Positions 20,528 through 38,266 are shown, numbered from the stretch's first letter. The stretch: 58,309 bases of DNA from a bacterium (GCA_031441465.1 JANOEP010000032.1:1-58309), one strand, 5' to 3'. The notes: generated by a model not told the origin, from the letters alone. Numbers and translations: made by a program.

Positions 20528-21235
20528 CTAACGGAACAGGCTCTTGACCTGTCCCCAGCTGGCGTCCTCGTTGGGCGTGGGGTCGTAAGGGAAGATGACC
20601 TTCACGCCGAAGAGGTGGTGGTAGCCGGCGGGGACCGTGAAGAACGGGAACCAGGGCTCGGCGATGCCGGTGCCGGCGAAGGTCCAGTCGATCAGAGGGT
20701 AGTCCATCCCGACCAGCGTGCCCAGCTCACTGCCGCCGTTCATGTCGCAGGTGCCGATGCCGGCGCCCGAGTACTGGCCGAACCCGAAGGGATCGTTCAG
20801 GTCCATCGTCCAACCGTTGTCCACGGCGGCCTGCAACAGCATCGTGCCGTCGGTGAACGTGGCCGGGGTCGCGTAGTTGGCCGCCGTGCCGCCGACGATG
20901 GCGTTCTGATAGATCCGCAGGACACCCCCGTTGAACACGTAGTTCTTCGTCTGGGCGGTCCCGTTGAACACGTAGCTGTCGACGACCATGCCGGTGATGG
21001 CCACGGTGTACTGGTTGTTGGCGAAATCCAAGGGGATCGGGGTGGGCATGCTGACCGGCGGATTGGCGATCCCGTAGACGGTCATCACGGCACCGACCTG
21101 GCCGGTGCCGGGTGCGTACTTCGCGTAGCCTTCGAAAGTGAACTCGACCTGCCCCAGAGCGGGGACGGCCGCGCACAGGGCCAAAGCCAGGATCAGCCCG
21201 ATCATCCGGCTCCGGGTCAACTGCATTTTCTTCAT
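20528..21235 (-). CDS. Secreted beta-rich protein with C-terminal SWGQVKSLFR motif
   Basis: Sec signal peptide (VPALG|Q), strong RBS, conserved C-terminal motif. Confidence 0.9.
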   Translation of the reverse strand: MKKMQLTRSRMIGLILALALCAAVPALGQVEFTFEGYAKYAPGTGQVGAVMTVYGIANPPVSMPTPIPLDFANNQYTVAITGMVVDSYVFNGTAQTKNYVFNGGVLRIYQNAIVGGTAANYATPATFTDGTMLLQAAVDNGWTMDLNDPFGFGQYSGAGIGTCDMNGGSELGTLVGMDYPLIDWTFAGTGIAEPWFPFFTVPAGYHHLFGVKVIFPYDPTPNEDASWGQVKSLFR

Positions 21236-21254
21236 GGCGCCCTCCTTCCGCTCG

Positions 21255-21950
21255 TTAACGGTACAAGTTCTTGACCCCGCCCCAAGACATGCTCTCGGTC
21301 GGGATCGTGCCGTCGTAGTAGATGTGGCCGTCGGTCTCCATGTCGTAGCCGTCGGGGATCGTGGCGTCGTTGAGCACGGTGCCCGCGAGCGTCAGACCGT
21401 TGGGATTCTGGAGTTCCTGGCCCAGCTCGGTGAAGTGGGTCCCGAGTTCGAACGTCAGCATCCCGACGTAGCTGCCGATGCCCGTAGTCGGGTTGTAGGT
21501 CAGCGAGAAGTTGCTGAAGACGCCGTGCAGGTACACGTCGCCGTCGCTGAAGGTGGCCATCGCCAGCGGGTCCGGGGGCGACACGCCGTAGTTCGGCAGC
21601 GTGTAACCGCCCGACAGGAACGCCTGCGCGTAGATGTCGATGGTGCCGCCAGTGTAGTAGATCCGGAAGCTGCCGTTGCCGAGATCCGCGGCCCCACCGG
21701 ACAACAGGTTGCCGATGACCCAGGTGTACTCGTAGTCAGCGGTGCTCCAGGTCAGCGGAGCGCTGATGTTGTCGACGAAGCCGACACCTGCCAGCACGTC
21801 GCCGGCGTTGCTCGGCGGGAAGCCGACCACGCCGGGATCGTTGTCCGACTCGAAGAGGTACCCGATGGTGTCCATGACATCGCTTTGGGCCCAGGCCGAC
21901 CCGGCGATGCACGCCAACACCAACACTCCCATCACCAACAGTTTCTTCAT
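21255..21950 (-). CDS. Secreted beta-rich protein with C-terminal SWGGVKNLYR motif (distant paralog of the adjacent gene)
   Basis: MKKLLV...AWA|Q signal; GGTIDIY and ATFSDG match GGVLRIY and ATFTDG of the neighbour. Confidence 0.9.
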   Translation of the reverse strand: MKKLLVMGVLVLACIAGSAWAQSDVMDTIGYLFESDNDPGVVGFPPSNAGDVLAGVGFVDNISAPLTWSTADYEYTWVIGNLLSGGAADLGNGSFRIYYTGGTIDIYAQAFLSGGYTLPNYGVSPPDPLAMATFSDGDVYLHGVFSNFSLTYNPTTGIGSYVGMLTFELGTHFTELGQELQNPNGLTLAGTVLNDATIPDGYDMETDGHIYYDGTIPTESMSWGGVKNLYR

Positions 21951-22213
21951 GGTGTCCCCCGATTCGTCTGCGGCTGCATGGTGCGGCCTTGATGATACGG
22001 ACGATCCTATTGGACTGCGCTCGATCAGTACGATCTCCCGGCGCCGTTCAGATTGAACGGCACCGTCGTACCGGGGCGTTGCGAGCACCGAATCATCGCG
22101 ACTCCGAGGAACCGCGACCCCTCCACTGTACAACCAACATCCTGCGGTATGCAATGACCGAATAGAAATAAATGCCGTCATCCCGCACATAATAATGACC
22201 ATTGTTCATAAAT

Positions 22214-22240
22214 ACGGAGACTCCGACAAGGAGTCTCCGT
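22214..22240 (-). terminator. Perfect 11-bp hairpin downstream of the histone gene
   Basis: ACGGAGACTCC-GACAA-GGAGTCTCCGT followed by an AT-rich tract on the minus strand. Confidence 0.6.
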
Positions 22241-22289
22241 GAAATCGGACTGAAATCGTGCCGTTGCAGTCCCTGGGGACTCCCGCCGG

Positions 22290-22451
22290 CTACAGATCCT
22301 GGGGCCGGACCGTCTTGCGGCCGTTGGCGATCGCACGCTGCTCGGCCTTCTTGATCAGTTCGTTGACCTTGGCGTCGAGGGCGTCGTAGAACTCGCCGGA
22401 AACGTTGCACTGCGTGACGGCTTCCTTCGTCTTGCTCTTGCTGATGATCAT
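22290..22451 (-). CDS. Bacterial histone-fold protein (DUF1931-like, 53 aa)
   Basis: MIISKSKTKEAVTQCNVSGEFYDALDAKVNELIKKAEQRAIANGRKTVRPQDL: long alpha2 helix, RKTV loop, RxTxxxxD clamp, truncated alpha3. Confidence 0.9.
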   Translation of the reverse strand: MIISKSKTKEAVTQCNVSGEFYDALDAKVNELIKKAEQRAIANGRKTVRPQDL

Positions 22452-22710
22452 GGTGGCCTCGATTCTCCTGAAGGGTGAAACCTCGGGCGACGGCGTCGCC
22501 CGGCGAAGGGATCGCATCGGGCAAGGTGGGATCTTGGCGAATCCGACCGGCGGTGTCAACGGGATTCGCCTCTCCGCATCCTCCGCGTCCAGGGCGGGAA
22601 GCGGCGGCATGGGGCGGGAACGCGGCACACAATGCCCTCGACAGTCGCGGGCGTCAAGGCTAAGTTTCGCCGACCAGCGCCGCCGCGACACGCACCCGCC
22701 AGGAGGAGCC

Positions 22711-36341: not shown

Positions 36342-36381
36342 GTCGGGAAGCGGGCGGGCGGCGCGCAGGCCGCCCGGCCGG

Positions 36382-36410
36382 AAGATAGCGGAACCCCGCA
36401 GGAGTGTCAA
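36382..36410 (-). promoter_or_regulatory. sigma70 promoter of tRNA-Lys
   Basis: TTGACA-N17-TATCTT. Confidence 0.75.
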
Positions 36411-36427
36411 AGCGCACGGACGTGTGG

Positions 36428-37747
36428 TCAGACGCTGACGCCGCCCGGCGTCCAGATCATCTCGTCGCGCTCGCGGCCGACCGAGATCCCGACCACGGGC
36501 GTCGCCAGTTCCCGCTCCAGGAACGCCAGGTAGCTGCGAGCGGCGGCGGGCAGTTCCCCCAGCGTCCGGCACGCCCCGATGGGCGCCTGCCAGCCCGGGA
36601 ACGAGCGGTAGACGGGCTTGCAGCGCGCCAACAGGTCGCCCTGCGCCGGGAACCGGTCCAGCGAGTCGCCGTCGACCGTGTAGCTCGTCGCGACCTTGAT
36701 CTCCGGCAGGGTGTCCAGGACGTCGAGCTTGGTGATGATCACACCGGTCATGCCGTTGAGTTCCGCGGCGTAGCAGCCGGCCGGCAGGTCGAACCAGCCG
36801 CAGCGCCGGGCGCGGCCGGTGGTGGCGCCGAACTCCCCGCCCAGCAGTCGCAGCGAGTCGCCCTCCTCCGCCAGCAGCTCGCTGGGGAAGGGGCCGTTGC
36901 CGACACGGGTGCAGTAGGCCTTGTAGACGCCCAGGATCTCGCCGAGGCACTGCGGAGGCAGCCCGGTGCCGGTGAGCGCGCCGCCGACCGAAGGGCTGCT
37001 CGAGGTCACGTAGGGGTAGGTGCCGTGGTCGAGGTCCAGCAGGGCGCCCTGGGCGCCTTCGAACAGCGCGGTCTCGCGGCCGAGCCGCACGCCGGCCAGC
37101 GCGTCGTGCCCGTCGACGATCATCGGCGCGAAAGTCCGCGCCAGCACGACCAGCTCCTGGGCGATGTTGGCGGCCGACAGGGGTTCGGCTTCGTACAGCG
37201 CCGCGAGCGCTTCGTTGGCTTCGAGGATCTTCTCGATCGCCCGCCGCTCGAGGTTCTCCTTCGGCAGCAGCAGGTCGCCCATGCGCAGGCCCTGGCGCGT
37301 CGCCTTGTCCACGTAGGCCGGGCCGATGCCGCGCCCGGTGGTGCCGATGCTGCGGCGCTTGCGCTTGCTCTCCAGGCATTCGTCGTAGCGGCGGTGGTAG
37401 GGCATCAGCAGGTGGGCCGCCGCGGAGATGAACAGGCGCCCGCGCACCTTCACGCCGCGTTCCTCCAGCTCCATGATCTCGTCGCGCAGGGCCCAGGGAT
37501 CCACCACCATGCCGTTGCCCAGGTAGCCGCGGACGCCCTCGCTGAGCAGCCCCGAGGGGACCAGGTGCAGGACGATCTTCTCGCCGCCCCGCACGATGGT
37601 GTGGCCGGCGTTGGCGCCGCCCTGGTAGCGCAGGACCCAGTCGACGCCGCGGCCGAGGGCGTCGACGATCTTGCCCTTGCCCTCGTCGCCCCACTGGCCG
37701 CCGATGATCACACGGTTGCTGGTCGCACGTCCGTCCACGTCACCCAT
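36428..37747 (-). CDS. purA: Adenylosuccinate synthetase
   Basis: [45 protein letters not shown]. Confidence 0.97.
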
Positions 37748-37781
37748 CCTCGCCCGGACCGGCGTCACCCGCCGGACCCGC

Positions 37782-37817
37782 AAAAAAAAACGAGCCTCGT
37801 GGTTCGAGACCGTCGTC
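37782..37817 (-). terminator. Intrinsic terminator just upstream of purA
   Basis: Minus strand GACGACGGTCTCG-AACCA-CGAGGCTCG-T9. Confidence 0.6.
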
Positions 37818-37837
37818 ATGGCGTATCGAGACCCGGC

Positions 37838-38266
37838 CTAACGGCCGGTGAACATGGCCTTCAACTCGCCCCAGGTCTTCTCGTCGAGGATGCCGGCCGA
37901 ACAGCCCGGCTCGCCCGGGTTGCTGGATTCCGCGAGCACGCCTCCGTCGGGATGGCCGTTGCCGTCGCTGTCCCCCACTTCTGAACCGTTGGTGCACCCG
38001 TCCTCGTCGGAATCCAGGCTGGCCAGCGTGGCGTTCCAGAGGAAGAAGTTGTCGCGAAAATCCTGGCCGAAGGAGTTCAGAGCCGAGCTGGTGGACGTGG
38101 GGGCCGACTCGACGTGGCAATTCAGGCAGGCGAACGGCGCACTGACCGGCAACTGACCCATCATCGTTTCGGTCGCCGAAGCGACCGACACGGATAGGAT
38201 CAACAGCACGACAACGCTGGAGCCGATCGATAGCTTACGCTCCACGGGCCTCCCATCTGCCATCAT
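37838..38266 (-). CDS. Small exported CxxCH / temptin-like protein with variant C-terminal TWGELKAMFTGR motif
   Basis: Hydrophobic N-region ending ASA, CLNCH, LNSFGQDF..W..L..LDSDEDGCTNGSE. Start uncertain. Confidence 0.8.
   Translation of the reverse strand: MMADGRPVERKLSIGSSVVVLLILSVSVASATETMMGQLPVSAPFACLNCHVESAPTSTSSALNSFGQDFRDNFFLWNATLASLDSDEDGCTNGSEVGDSDGNGHPDGGVLAESSNPGEPGCSAGILDEKTWGELKAMFTGR

Follow-up and report, generated by a model that had tools for sequence, protein, structure and literature searches.

Tail-bearing proteins in the window

The question raised by this locus is why six small proteins end in the same short motif and whether this ending acts as a sorting signal. The window, a bacterial DNA stretch of 58,309 nucleotides, is contig C32 of the source genome G000 (3,492,914 bp, 74 contigs). 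The original prediction, made from the sequence alone, interpreted the motif as a sorting tag. As findings that would speak against this reading, it named an equal abundance of the motif in cytoplasmic proteins or at internal positions, a confinement to these few genes, and a match to a characterized domain with a different function. All six open reading frames are present with the predicted termini. Carrier 1 (20528..21235, minus strand; tail 20531-20581, PTPNEDASWGQVKSLFR) is an exported beta-sandwich protein of 235 aa without a family in Pfam or NCBIfam. Nearly all of its 52 homologues, down to about 32% identity, bear the tail. In its AF2 model, the core (residues 31-214, pLDDT >90) is followed by a low-confidence linker (215-226) and a detached helix (227-233), which corresponds to the motif; no PDB structure matched the fold at E ≤ 0.001. 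Carrier 2 (21255..21950, minus strand; tail 21258-21308, TIPTESMSWGGVKNLYR), an exported protein of 231 aa, likewise matched no Pfam or NCBIfam family, and its core is a BLASTP singleton among the carriers. A lipobox-like motif is located close to its N-terminus.

Two carriers are lamin-tail-domain proteins. Carrier 3 (26282..26917, minus strand, 211 aa; tail 26285-26335, AVANDDATWSAVKSMYR) matched Pfam LTD at 3.7e-12 and an NCBIfam ExeM-like N-terminal region with 83.6 bits, which is far under the cut-off. Carrier 4 (27126..27818, minus strand, 230 aa; tail 27129-27179, AVGNEDQSWSSIKAIYR) matched LTD at 3e-12 and contains a signal peptide. Carrier 5 (29016..29381, plus strand; tail 29328-29378, LVPNEAGSWGAVKSLYR) is a small CxxCH/DSD protein of 121 aa with a weak diheme_GEGP match (30.4 bits). 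It is a BLASTP relative of carrier 6 (37838..38266, minus strand), a Temptin_C-like small protein of 142 aa (Pfam Temptin_C, 8.1e-12), whose variant tail (37841-37894, GILDEKTWGELKAMFTGR) has three residues between the end of the motif and the stop codon. Amid the carriers, an exported protein of 477 aa is encoded (24712..26145, minus strand) that, according to profile matches, bears a classical C-terminal domain (CTD) of the T9SS/FlgD type (FlgD_ig, 3.5e-9; Por_Secre_tail, 21.6 bits), in addition to DUF7453 and an NxxGxxAF choice-of-anchor repeat.

Position and sequence of the tail

The six-frame translation of G000 (38,723 segments between stop codons, each no shorter than 40 aa) was scanned with the pattern W[GSA].[VILM]K.[LMIVA][YFW]. 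Of 53 matches, 51 stand 0-3 residues before a stop codon, as against 1.44 expected under a uniform spread, and shuffling the residues of the segments left 0-2 matches in total. The motif is thus almost confined to the extreme C-terminus, as had been proposed. The six carriers were real, but their number was too low, since G000 encodes at least 51; a looser pattern raises the number of tail-bearing ORF ends to 63.

The consensus of the tail is V-[APG]-N-E-[DE]-x-[ST]-W-[GS]-x-[VI]-K-x-[LM]-[YF]-R-stop, approximately 16 residues, so that conservation reaches upstream of the tryptophan core to V(-7)-[APG]-N-E-[DE]. A cysteine was found at positions -14 to -6 in 17 of the 51 carriers, with a peak at -10. 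Tryptophan and lysine had both been considered invariant. This holds for lysine, the sole invariant residue in alignments built without selection by the pattern (A1, A5), but not for tryptophan, in whose place some relatives of carrier 1, and many operon genes from other genera, have phenylalanine. The last three to five residues vary by lineage (...KALY-stop, ...KARF-stop, ...KSMMD-stop), and the extreme C-terminus may be R, K, GR, TGR or others, or lack such residues. The tail is conserved more than the passenger, as it is still present in carrier 1 relatives with a core identity of about 32%. The motif corresponds to no characterized domain: Pfam and NCBIfam gave no match to the tail, and 12 isolated tails remained without a match at E ≤ 10 in a profile search.

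Export and passengers of the carriers

A signal-peptide-like N-terminus, called by a crude hydrophobicity rule, was found in 50 of the 51 carriers of G000, and the sole exception is truncated by a contig start; this is the association expected of a sorting tag. Three carriers have a lipobox-like motif. The carriers are 121-381 aa long (median 230 aa, n = 51), and roughly 2% of the genes carry a tail. Their 51 cores fall into 38 BLASTP families, with passenger domains (Pfam/NCBIfam) including LTD, Temptin_C, CBM20, Cohesin, PPC, DUF642/choice-of-anchor C, choice-of-anchor E and J, and DNRLRE. One carrier (C64:32059-32592) matched the cohesin model PF00963 at 2.9e-7. The choice-of-anchor families owe their definition to their position ahead of sorting signals that can replace one another. 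Two AF2 models agree in a confident core, a linker of low pLDDT and a detached seven-residue motif helix, itself of low confidence. In these models, the tail is predicted to be a free appendage, a short helix detached beyond a disordered linker.

The tail and the T9SS CTD on related passengers

Two paralogues of the carrier C64:54637-55452 bear a CTD and share 67% and 56% identity with it. The homology stops at the same residue, after which the carrier continues with a tail of 17 aa and the paralogues with a linker and a CTD. Two further carriers have CTD-bearing paralogues at 27-41% identity. An in-genome CTD HMM detected 115 CTD proteins in G000, among them the protein 24712..26145 of the window, and none of the 115 ends in the short tail. 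Conversely, TIGR04183, PF18962 and PF13860, which cover about 70-100 C-terminal residues, matched none of the 51 carriers, in agreement with the earlier assessment that the tail is too short for a T9SS CTD. One passenger type can bear either the tail or a CTD, and the two are probably parallel signals.

Distribution among candidate phyla

The tail is present in 205 of 208, 10 of 10 and 74 of 81 genomes of three phylum-level groups (GTDB), amounting to thousands of tail-bearing proteins across at least three candidate phyla; a reversed-pattern control gave 0-1 matches per strand per genome. Together with the 38 BLASTP families, this places the motif well beyond a few genes or one family. A suspected link to Latescibacterota fits some record titles, but the MAGs labelled in this way belong to the GTDB phylum of G000 itself. 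For Poribacteria, which had also been suspected, no record title among 138 loci was classed as such.

A T9SS was found in all six tail-bearing genomes tested (G000 and five outside its phylum), and all five tail-rich genomes outside this phylum contain PorU and many CTDs. In G000, a PorU-like sortase gene adjoins a PorV-like gene, both scoring below the curated cut-offs, and several PorV-like paralogues are present.

A PorU-like peptidase encoded next to tail-bearing genes

Directly downstream of tail-bearing genes and on the same strand lies the gene for PorU-L, a C25 peptidase of roughly 1,400 aa that resembles PorU but is divergent. This order was found at all six loci compared (G000 and five genomes from other phylum-level groups), with a variant tail in G423. 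With a broad definition of the tail, 36 of 40 genomes of the phylum have a tail gene upstream of PorU-L, and four have none in this region. The tails in these upstream regions numbered 87 on the same strand and 0 on the opposite one, whereas about 2 were expected from the rate in G000 (63 per 3.49 Mb). With the strict DNA pattern, a tail was detected there in 14 of 40 genomes versus 1.25 matches expected. Apart from the signal peptide and the tail, the carriers adjoining PorU-L show no detectable homology between phyla; within the phylum, the X genes of the PorU-L operon resemble one family (alignment A7, 16-48% identity). The original prediction knew of no machinery for the motif; this PorU-like paralogue of the sortase is now a candidate, given that its gene order with the tail genes is conserved.

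Peptidase_C25 was detected in six of six PorU-L sequences (1e-44 to 1e-69). The catalytic residues His933 and Cys974 are invariant in 45 of 45 aligned sequences, and the CTD consensus is present; Pfam detected a FlgD_ig CTD in four of the six, and one further sequence is truncated by a contig end. PorU-L forms a family of its own with 159 representatives (clusters) at E ≤ 1e-30. An assignment to canonical PorU (NF033707, cut-off 420 bits) was rejected, as the G000 protein scored 150.7 bits over residues 270-1089 and that of G421 290.9 bits; the canonical PorU of G000 reached 402-403 bits. PorU2 (NF052324, cut-off 450 bits) was rejected as well, with 48.7 and 92.8 bits. Since PorU-L scores below even the canonical PorU of G000 on this model (104 bits), it represents a different PorU relative.

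The G000 query gave no PorU-L match in 30 of 208 genomes, including G140 (91% complete, 12 tails). Both the tails and PorU-L are near-universal in the phylum, and a phyletic test therefore has no discriminating power. Family f6 retains PorU-L, although its tails have drifted (...KARF). The replacement of tryptophan by phenylalanine in operon tails extends over several genera, and in G007 the X genes are of the Phe type, although the strict pattern detects 35 Trp-type tails in this genome. Recognition may thus differ between operon tails and those elsewhere.

The operon encodes a dockerin-like protein, followed by the cohesin-like X1/X2 and PorU-L. Nearly all of the best approximately 30 Foldseek PDB matches of the one protein X that was modelled are cohesins (E 2e-4 to 3e-3, probability 1.00, TM 0.4-0.66 depending on target length). 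X1 and X2 did not match the Pfam cohesin model PF00963 at the sequence level, and the upstream dockerin-like protein scored 19.7 bits on dockerin_GC (cut-off 29).

Proposed function and alternative explanations

The tail probably acts as a tag for sorting or retention in one form or another, and every in silico refutation test named beforehand supported this interpretation at the level of sequence. The signal would consist of a polar/acidic spacer, [VI]-x-N-E-[DE]-x-[ST], and an amphipathic helix of 8-9 residues, [W/F]-[GS]-x-[VIL]-K-x-h-[YF]-R. The sequences show where the tail stands, its association with signal peptides, the diversity of the passengers, the distribution, the CTD swap and the synteny; how the tail would be recognized and cut, how the passenger would be attached, and how it would pass the outer membrane, we infer. 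The carrier would be exported by Sec and its signal peptide removed, the free C-terminal helix would be recognized, and PorU-L would cut in or near the spacer, whereupon the passenger would be released or, in a sortase-like manner, attached at the cell surface. We tentatively favor this overall picture, a minimal C-terminal sorting signal of T9SS-bearing candidate phyla that acts in parallel to the CTD and has PorU-L as its likeliest reader, at slightly less than an even chance. That PorU-L reads the tail, as the gene order suggests, is in itself somewhat doubtful. PorU-L bears a T9SS CTD and is therefore expected on the cell surface, and the carriers are without a known route across the outer membrane, which counts against such a role. 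Moreover, the synteny may mark one specific operon only and be silent on the other approximately 50 carriers.

An alternative that we regard as unlikely is a non-covalent docking peptide. The tail helix would insert into a receptor shared by many small exported proteins, for instance a PorV-like shuttle, an outer-membrane protein or a scaffold, which would retain these proteins at the envelope or pass them on to the T9SS translocon without processing by PorU-L. A helix modelled as detached on a flexible linker would suit docking, the tight conservation of its sequence from phylum to phylum points to a protein as reader, PorV-like paralogues are available in G000, and docking appears to be a theme of the PorU-L operon given its cohesin-like and dockerin-like proteins. 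However, the only conserved neighbor with a fitting known activity is a peptidase, no candidate receptor was found, and the variability of the extreme C-terminal residues makes a PDZ-like recognition of the free carboxylate unlikely. An enzyme-free, in-plane membrane anchor is improbable. Low-molecular-weight PBPs (PBP5-type) are anchored by C-terminal amphipathic helices, and the tail helix (W0, V3, L6 and Y7 on one face, flanked by K4 and R8) could similarly tether periplasmic proteins to the inner or the outer membrane by lying in its interface. The helical periodicity and the low-pLDDT helix in both models fit this idea, as do the tolerated exchange of Trp by Phe and the Trp, Tyr and basic residues, which are typical of interfacial helices. 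Eight to nine residues are, however, short for a stable anchor, and it is rare for an acidic spacer, Gly/Ser at +1 and a strictly fixed Lys to persist in the anchors of several phyla. Both the swap with a secretion/attachment domain on near-identical passengers and the surface or extracellular type of the passengers (CBM20, cohesin, LTD, choice-of-anchor) argue against such an anchor, and the synteny with a sortase paralogue would be left unexplained.

Two readings in which the tail is not an address label are very improbable: the carriers could have inherited this ending as members of a single large paralogous family, or it could mark them for degradation or quality control by a periplasmic protease. 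In favor of these readings, small size is common to all carriers, many of them are beta-rich, some are arranged in tandem paralogue arrays, and ANE[DE] loosely resembles the start of the ssrA tag. A common ancestry is contradicted by the number of BLASTP families, by distinct Pfam domains such as LTD, CBM20, Temptin_C, DUF642 and cohesin, and by a tail that is conserved beyond the protein bodies; a degron on this share of the genes, in three phyla and on surface-type domains, is implausible, and the CTD swap points to sorting.

If the proposed PorU-L-dependent sorting is upheld, the tail would represent a new signal class: about 16 residues of linear sequence, free of any membrane segment and borne by roughly 2% of genes in three or more phyla that are poorly known. 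The exported or surface proteome of these uncultured lineages could then be predicted cheaply, the large PorU-L family would receive a function, and a small portable tag would be available for probing T9SS-type cargo selection and attachment. With PorU-L as a lead, the question becomes accessible to bench work with peptide and recombinant enzyme, without culture. A more far-reaching version, which appears rather unlikely, would be a new type IX-related sorting branch, in which an unfolded signal of about 16 residues takes the place of the 80-aa CTD. PorU-L, as its dedicated reader, would cleave this signal and link small proteins by the dozen covalently to the cell surface, the cohesin-like anchors of the dockerin-like partner among them. 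If true, the T9SS world would gain its first signal that is not a domain and its first case of a second sortase, common to at least three candidate phyla.

Comparison with known sorting systems

The small sorting systems LPXTG/sortase, PEP-CTERM/exosortase, GlyGly-CTERM/rhombosortase and MYXO-CTERM/myxosortase likewise mark dozens of exported proteins in each genome, unrelated to one another, with one short C-terminal signature and have the passenger families choice-of-anchor and DNRLRE in common with the tail system. Several of them encode the processing enzyme next to some substrates, which corresponds to the position of the candidate enzyme PorU-L beside some carriers. The classical signals described in bioRxiv 10.1101/2023.06.07.544157 are tripartite and defined by a transmembrane helix and a basic cluster. 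The tail has neither, and as the carriers end 0-3 residues past the motif, no hydrophobic stretch follows it. Exosortase (PF09721) had no match in G000 (96.8% complete). Closer in size are two curated NCBIfam models with 10-11 positions, NF053834 (ultrashort_CTERM) and NF050076 (sort_motif_YLP), which describe putative C-terminal sorting motifs that are likewise very short; the former gave no match and the latter three weak ones, none on carriers.

Cohesin scaffoldins of cellulosomes can be sortase-anchored, for example ScaE of Ruminococcus flavefaciens. The PorU-L operon similarly combines cohesin-like X, an upstream dockerin-like protein and a downstream sortase-type enzyme, but the organism is diderm and the enzyme is a C25 peptidase instead of a class A sortase.

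The closest likeness is to the T9SS. Its CTDs (type A, TIGR04183/PF18962; FlgD_ig-type, PF13860; types B and C) likewise terminate surface-type proteins exported by Sec, and on paralogous passengers they share their junction with the tail. The signals presented in a T9SS review are folded domains of about 80-100 or more residues. As far as they are described there, a beta-sandwich of 70-100 or more residues contrasts with a tail of about 16 residues without a fold of its own, and in G000 the CTD proteins are longer than the carriers (median 799 versus 230 aa). The CTDs have PorU as their sortase, and the tail genes are likewise accompanied by a PorU-family C25 peptidase, which is a paralogue of PorU and not PorU itself.

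The C-terminal tail of exported proteins in G000

All six open reading frames (ORFs) that had been predicted to share a C-terminal motif are present in the window with the predicted termini. The six carriers are real, but they belong to a set of at least 51 in the genome that contains the window (G000; 3.49 Mb on 74 contigs, of which the window is C32; approximately 70% GC). A six-frame scan of G000 (38,723 stop-to-stop segments) with the loose expression W[GSA].[VILM]K.[LMIVA][YFW] gave 53 matches, 51 of which end 0–3 residues before a stop codon; 1.44 terminal matches would be expected under an even spread. 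Residue-shuffled segments contained 0–2 matches in total. According to a crude hydrophobicity rule, 50 of the 51 carriers start with a signal-peptide-like sequence, and the remaining one is truncated by the start of its contig. A lipobox-like motif was found in three carriers. The carriers have lengths from 121 to 381 amino acids (median 230).

The Trp-anchored alignment of the 51 carriers reads V(−7), A/P/G(−6), N(−5), E(−4), D/S/E(−3), any residue, S/T(−1), W, G/S, any residue, V/I, K, A/S/T, L/M/I, Y/F, the last position being followed by R in 33 carriers. The conserved stretch is longer than originally predicted and reaches upstream to V(−7). Trp and Lys had been described as invariant. 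Among the 51 carriers this is a consequence of the regular expression, which demands both; in alignments that were not selected by it, Lys is indeed invariant, whereas Trp is sometimes replaced by Phe. A Cys residue is located between −14 and −6 relative to Trp in 17 of the 51 carriers, with a peak at −10 (overall Cys frequency 2.2%). In many carriers, including those at 26282–26917 and 27126–27818 of the window, it lies 9–12 residues ahead of Trp and may form a disulfide stapling the end of the passenger, i.e., the carrier without signal peptide and tail, just before the tail. The window also encodes a 479-amino acid protein (32755–34194, + strand) in which a hydrophobic segment lies internally and GxxGxI(W/Y)H(F/Y)DG motifs recur. 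This protein has neither the short tail nor a T9SS/FlgD-type C-terminal domain (CTD) and is possibly an exported beta-propeller.

Passenger domains and structural models

The claim that the passengers are unrelated was borne out. Trimmed of their signal peptides and of 20 C-terminal residues, the 51 cores formed 38 single-linkage BLASTP families at E 1e-3, including 30 singletons. Most carriers had no Pfam or NCBIfam match. The matches obtained were to lamin-tail domains, Temptin_C/diheme-like proteins, CBM20, cohesin, and PPC, as well as to DUF642/choice-of-anchor C, choice-of-anchor E and J, and DNRLRE. Families of the choice-of-anchor and DNRLRE type are defined by their position ahead of interchangeable sorting signals, and their occurrence before the tail is meaningful for this reason. 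The tail itself was reached by no Pfam or NCBIfam model; 12 isolated 25-residue tails gave no match at E ≤10 in either library, and no carrier was matched by NF053834 or NF050076, which NCBIfam provides for very short C-terminal motifs.

Two carriers were modeled with AlphaFold2: the exported 235-amino acid protein at 20528–21235 (− strand) of the window (carrier 1) and X2, one of two tail-bearing proteins (X1 and X2) encoded ahead of a divergent PorU-like C25 peptidase (PorU-L) in G000. The input alignments comprised 34 and 33 sequences, respectively. In the model of carrier 1, a beta-sandwich core (residues 31–214, pLDDT above 90) is followed by a low-confidence linker (215–226) and a detached helix (227–233) that coincides exactly with the motif. 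The model of X2 displays a core (38–172), a linker with pLDDT below 50 (203–209), and a helix (210–216). In both models, the tail is thus predicted to be a free appendage of its protein. A Foldseek search of the PDB with carrier 1 returned nothing at E ≤0.001. Within the carrier 1 family, the tail is kept down to approximately 32% identity, where the protein bodies have diverged.

Exchange of the tail with the T9SS sorting domain

G000 contains a near full-length PorU (403 bits, cut-off 420) with an adjoining PorV-like gene, and no exosortase was matched in this genome. The FlgD/T9SS-type CTD was identified on 115 proteins, none of which carries the short tail; the median length of the CTD proteins is 799 amino acids compared to 230 for the tail carriers. 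A member of a BLAST-linked family of 116 proteins is encoded within four genes of 31 of the 51 carriers, where approximately 14–15 would be expected by arithmetic. The one member of this family that was checked has an FlgD_ig CTD.

The relationship between both C-termini is most directly seen in a carrier on contig C64 (54637–55452, 271 amino acids) and its two paralogues of 421 and 367 amino acids, to which it is 67% and 56% identical. All three sequences align to the same residue; beyond it, the carrier ends with VTPNADSSWGEVKAAWR, and a linker and a classical CTD follow in the paralogues. Tail and CTD are therefore alternative modules attached at the same junction. Two more carriers have CTD-bearing paralogues at 27–41% identity. 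The C64 protein and its paralogues (C36:11450–12715 and C18:419–1522; 56–67% identity) share an unannotated domain of approximately 230 amino acids (HHSTGRN...DSHPNAAAN) and represent a natural domain-swap set, one with the short tail and two with the T9SS CTD.

Genes for exported proteins of both C-terminal classes cluster in G000. Amid the short-tail carriers of the window, for instance, a 477-amino acid exported protein is encoded (24712–26145, − strand) that contains DUF7453, an NxxGxxAF choice-of-anchor repeat, and a FlgD/T9SS-type CTD. On contig C47, a weak PorV-like match (6192–6653, + strand; 41.8 bits, 736-amino acid frame), one of four additional PorV-like paralogues in G000, is located approximately 2 kb upstream of a carrier (8875–9705, + strand).

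Distribution of the tail

The distribution was determined with a nucleotide pattern encoding W-[GSAT..]-x-h-K-x-h-[YF]-[RK..]-stop, the reversed pattern serving as control. Matches were found in 20 of the 21 nearest relatives of G000 and in 205 of 208 genomes of its GTDB phylum (one class, 81 genera), with 0–67 matches per genome (control 0–1 per strand). All 10 genomes of a second phylum-level group were positive (23–84 matches each), as were 74 of 81 genomes in an even sample of a third, larger group (73 of 80 without the unpublished genome G445). A stricter pattern detected at least 138 loci in a collection of 185,579 species, and each of these 138 encodes a genuine tail that closes an open frame. 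The three genomes of the G000 phylum that gave no match all possess variant tails: G034 has 20 of the form ...KALY-stop, and in G039 and G019 they are encoded immediately upstream of PorU-L. The ...KARF endings of family f6 are missed as well. Since such variant endings escape the patterns, the strict-pattern counts are lower bounds.

Tail records carry the submitter labels Eisenbacteria, Krumholzibacteriia, Latescibacterota, Fibrobacteraceae, Gemmatimonadetes, Effluviviaceae, UBP1, and others. Metagenome-assembled genomes (MAGs) labeled Fibrobacteraceae, Fibrobacter sp., UBP1, and Latescibacteria belong without exception to the GTDB phylum of G000; for many MAG records with these labels or Gemmatimonadetes (loci L048–L185), the submitter taxonomy conflicts with the GTDB-based grouping. 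Because the labels are unreliable, phyla were counted by GTDB-based groups only. The Atlas clusters nearest to carrier 1 come from Krumholzibacteriota and Eiseniibacteriota. A tail-profile search of 5.8 billion proteins gave only 55 matches at E ≤10, since the profile is too short, and was of no use for the distribution. Tandem arrays of 5–8 tail-bearing paralogues with a spacing of approximately 0.7–1 kb were observed in other phyla (G217:C65:74879–78328, G216:C1:3010563–3018486, and G422:C296, locus L208), which suggests a rapid local expansion of carrier genes.

A divergent PorU-like peptidase encoded downstream of tail genes

Five tail-rich genomes outside the phylum of G000 were tested, and all five contain PorU, many CTDs, and a second, divergent PorU-type gene whose coordinates coincide with those of tail genes. 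At all six loci (G000 and the five outside genomes), one to five tail genes are located upstream of and on the same strand as the gene for PorU-L (1,200–1,400 amino acids). In G000, two carriers are separated from PorU-L by 184 nt; in G216, a single carrier precedes it with a gap of 34 nt. Three carriers and a cytochrome gene lead to PorU-L in G211, two carriers and a sulfatase-TPR gene in G421, and one variant-tail gene in G423, while G422 has five carriers within 10 kb upstream. The PorU-L-adjacent carriers of different phyla have nothing detectable in common beyond signal peptide and tail.

The C25 peptidase domain is present in all six PorU-L proteins, the C25 propeptide in three, and, according to Pfam, the FlgD-type CTD in four, one sequence being truncated by a contig end. 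The catalytic His and Cys are retained in all six and throughout an alignment of 45 family members (His933, Cys974). PorU-L is neither PorU (150.7 and 290.9 bits, cut-off 420) nor the "putative PorU2" of NCBIfam (NF052324; 48.7 and 92.8 bits, cut-off 450). PorU-L constitutes a separate family, for which 159 of 1.84 billion cluster representatives were retrieved at E ≤1e-30. A complex prediction for PorU-L residues 270–1110 (45-row alignment) and a 45-residue tail segment (62-row alignment) scored 0.00 with an uncertain peptide fold and bears neither way on binding.

The gene order was followed across the phylum of G000 in approximately 6.5 kb upstream of PorU-L from 40 genomes, which were picked by usable PorU-L coordinates only and cover most genera; contig ends shorten four of these regions. 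The strict DNA pattern matched on the same strand in 14 genomes and never on the opposite strand (expected 1.25 on both strands), and a Trp-only protein expression matched on the same strand in 21. A broad expression, which allows Phe and lineage-specific endings and requires a 100-amino acid open frame, detected 87 same-strand tails in 36 of the 40 genomes and no tail on the opposite strand; approximately two would be expected from the 63 ORF ends per 3.49 Mb in G000. An upstream tail gene was absent at the other four loci. Usually, two tandem genes for proteins of approximately 200 amino acids end about 300 and 1,300 nt ahead of PorU-L, and in several genera their tails have Phe at the usual Trp position. 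With the G000 query, PorU-L was matched in 178 of the 208 genomes of the phylum, the non-matching ones being mostly incomplete or distant; G140 (91% complete, 12 tails) is among those without a match. The co-occurrence of PorU-L and tails within the phylum says little because both are near-universal. A Zixibacteria-labeled genome with one chance-level tail has PorU and no PorU-L-type operon, which fits a coupling of tail and PorU-L as a single case.

In G000, the PorU-L operon forms part of a conserved cluster outside the window (C37:6000–20500, locus L205), in which MltG, an 83-amino acid membrane protein, a 215-amino acid dockerin-like protein, X1, X2, PorU-L, and a SpoIID/LytB-type protein are encoded. 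The 215-amino acid protein ends with ...VVCP and is the sole match to the GC-type dockerin model in G000, below the cut-off (16.6–19.7 bits versus 29). A dockerin-like ...CP protein is also encoded upstream in G216, G422, G014, and several genera of the phylum. The predicted fold of X2 is cohesin-like; nearly all of its top ~30 Foldseek matches in the PDB are cohesin modules (E from 2e-4). A search for a processing enzyme within four genes of the 51 carriers yielded nothing but common families (ABC ATPases, RND pumps, xanthine-dehydrogenase-like proteins, ECF sigma factors, GH17-like proteins, DUF4143, and T9SS-CTD cargo).

Possible function of the tail

The results establish the tail as a conserved, terminal, and transferable module of exported proteins that is interchangeable with the T9SS sorting domain. 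Some form of sorting or retention tag is its probable role. A degron, or the end of one paralogous family, is very unlikely. PorU-L is a plausible, if tentative, candidate for the protein that reads the tail, based on synteny and on the analogy with other sorting systems, whose enzyme genes neighbor those of some substrates. Against this role, PorU-L should sit on the cell surface, whereas no route is known by which the carriers would cross the outer membrane, and the operon may constitute a cohesin/dockerin/peptidase module in its own right. The four loci that lack an upstream tail gene, the Phe-type tails of the operon genes, and the missing PorU-L match in G140 weaken the case as well. Instead of being read by PorU-L, the tail could be a peptide that docks non-covalently to a receptor such as a PorV-like shuttle, which we consider rather unlikely, and an in-plane membrane anchor that functions without an enzyme appears quite improbable. 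Three further ideas were dropped by reasoning. An outer membrane protein beta-signal would call for a hydrophobic residue where Lys is located, the variable terminal residues speak against binding of the free C-terminus by a PDZ domain, and a radical-SAM Lys–Trp crosslink does not suit Sec-exported proteins of 200 amino acids.

As a sorting or retention tag, the tail is classed among the C-terminal protein-sorting signals. No description of the motif was found in the portions of the literature returned by full-text searches. The sections consulted of a T9SS review list only CTDs of types A, B, and C, for which the lengths stated range from approximately 100 to over 200 residues (PMC10202324), and the signals in the consulted part of a preprint cataloguing small sorting signals are tripartite and include a membrane segment (bioRxiv 10.1101/2023.06.07.544157). 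The finding would go beyond another C-terminal sorting signal if PorU-L proved to be a dedicated second sortase.
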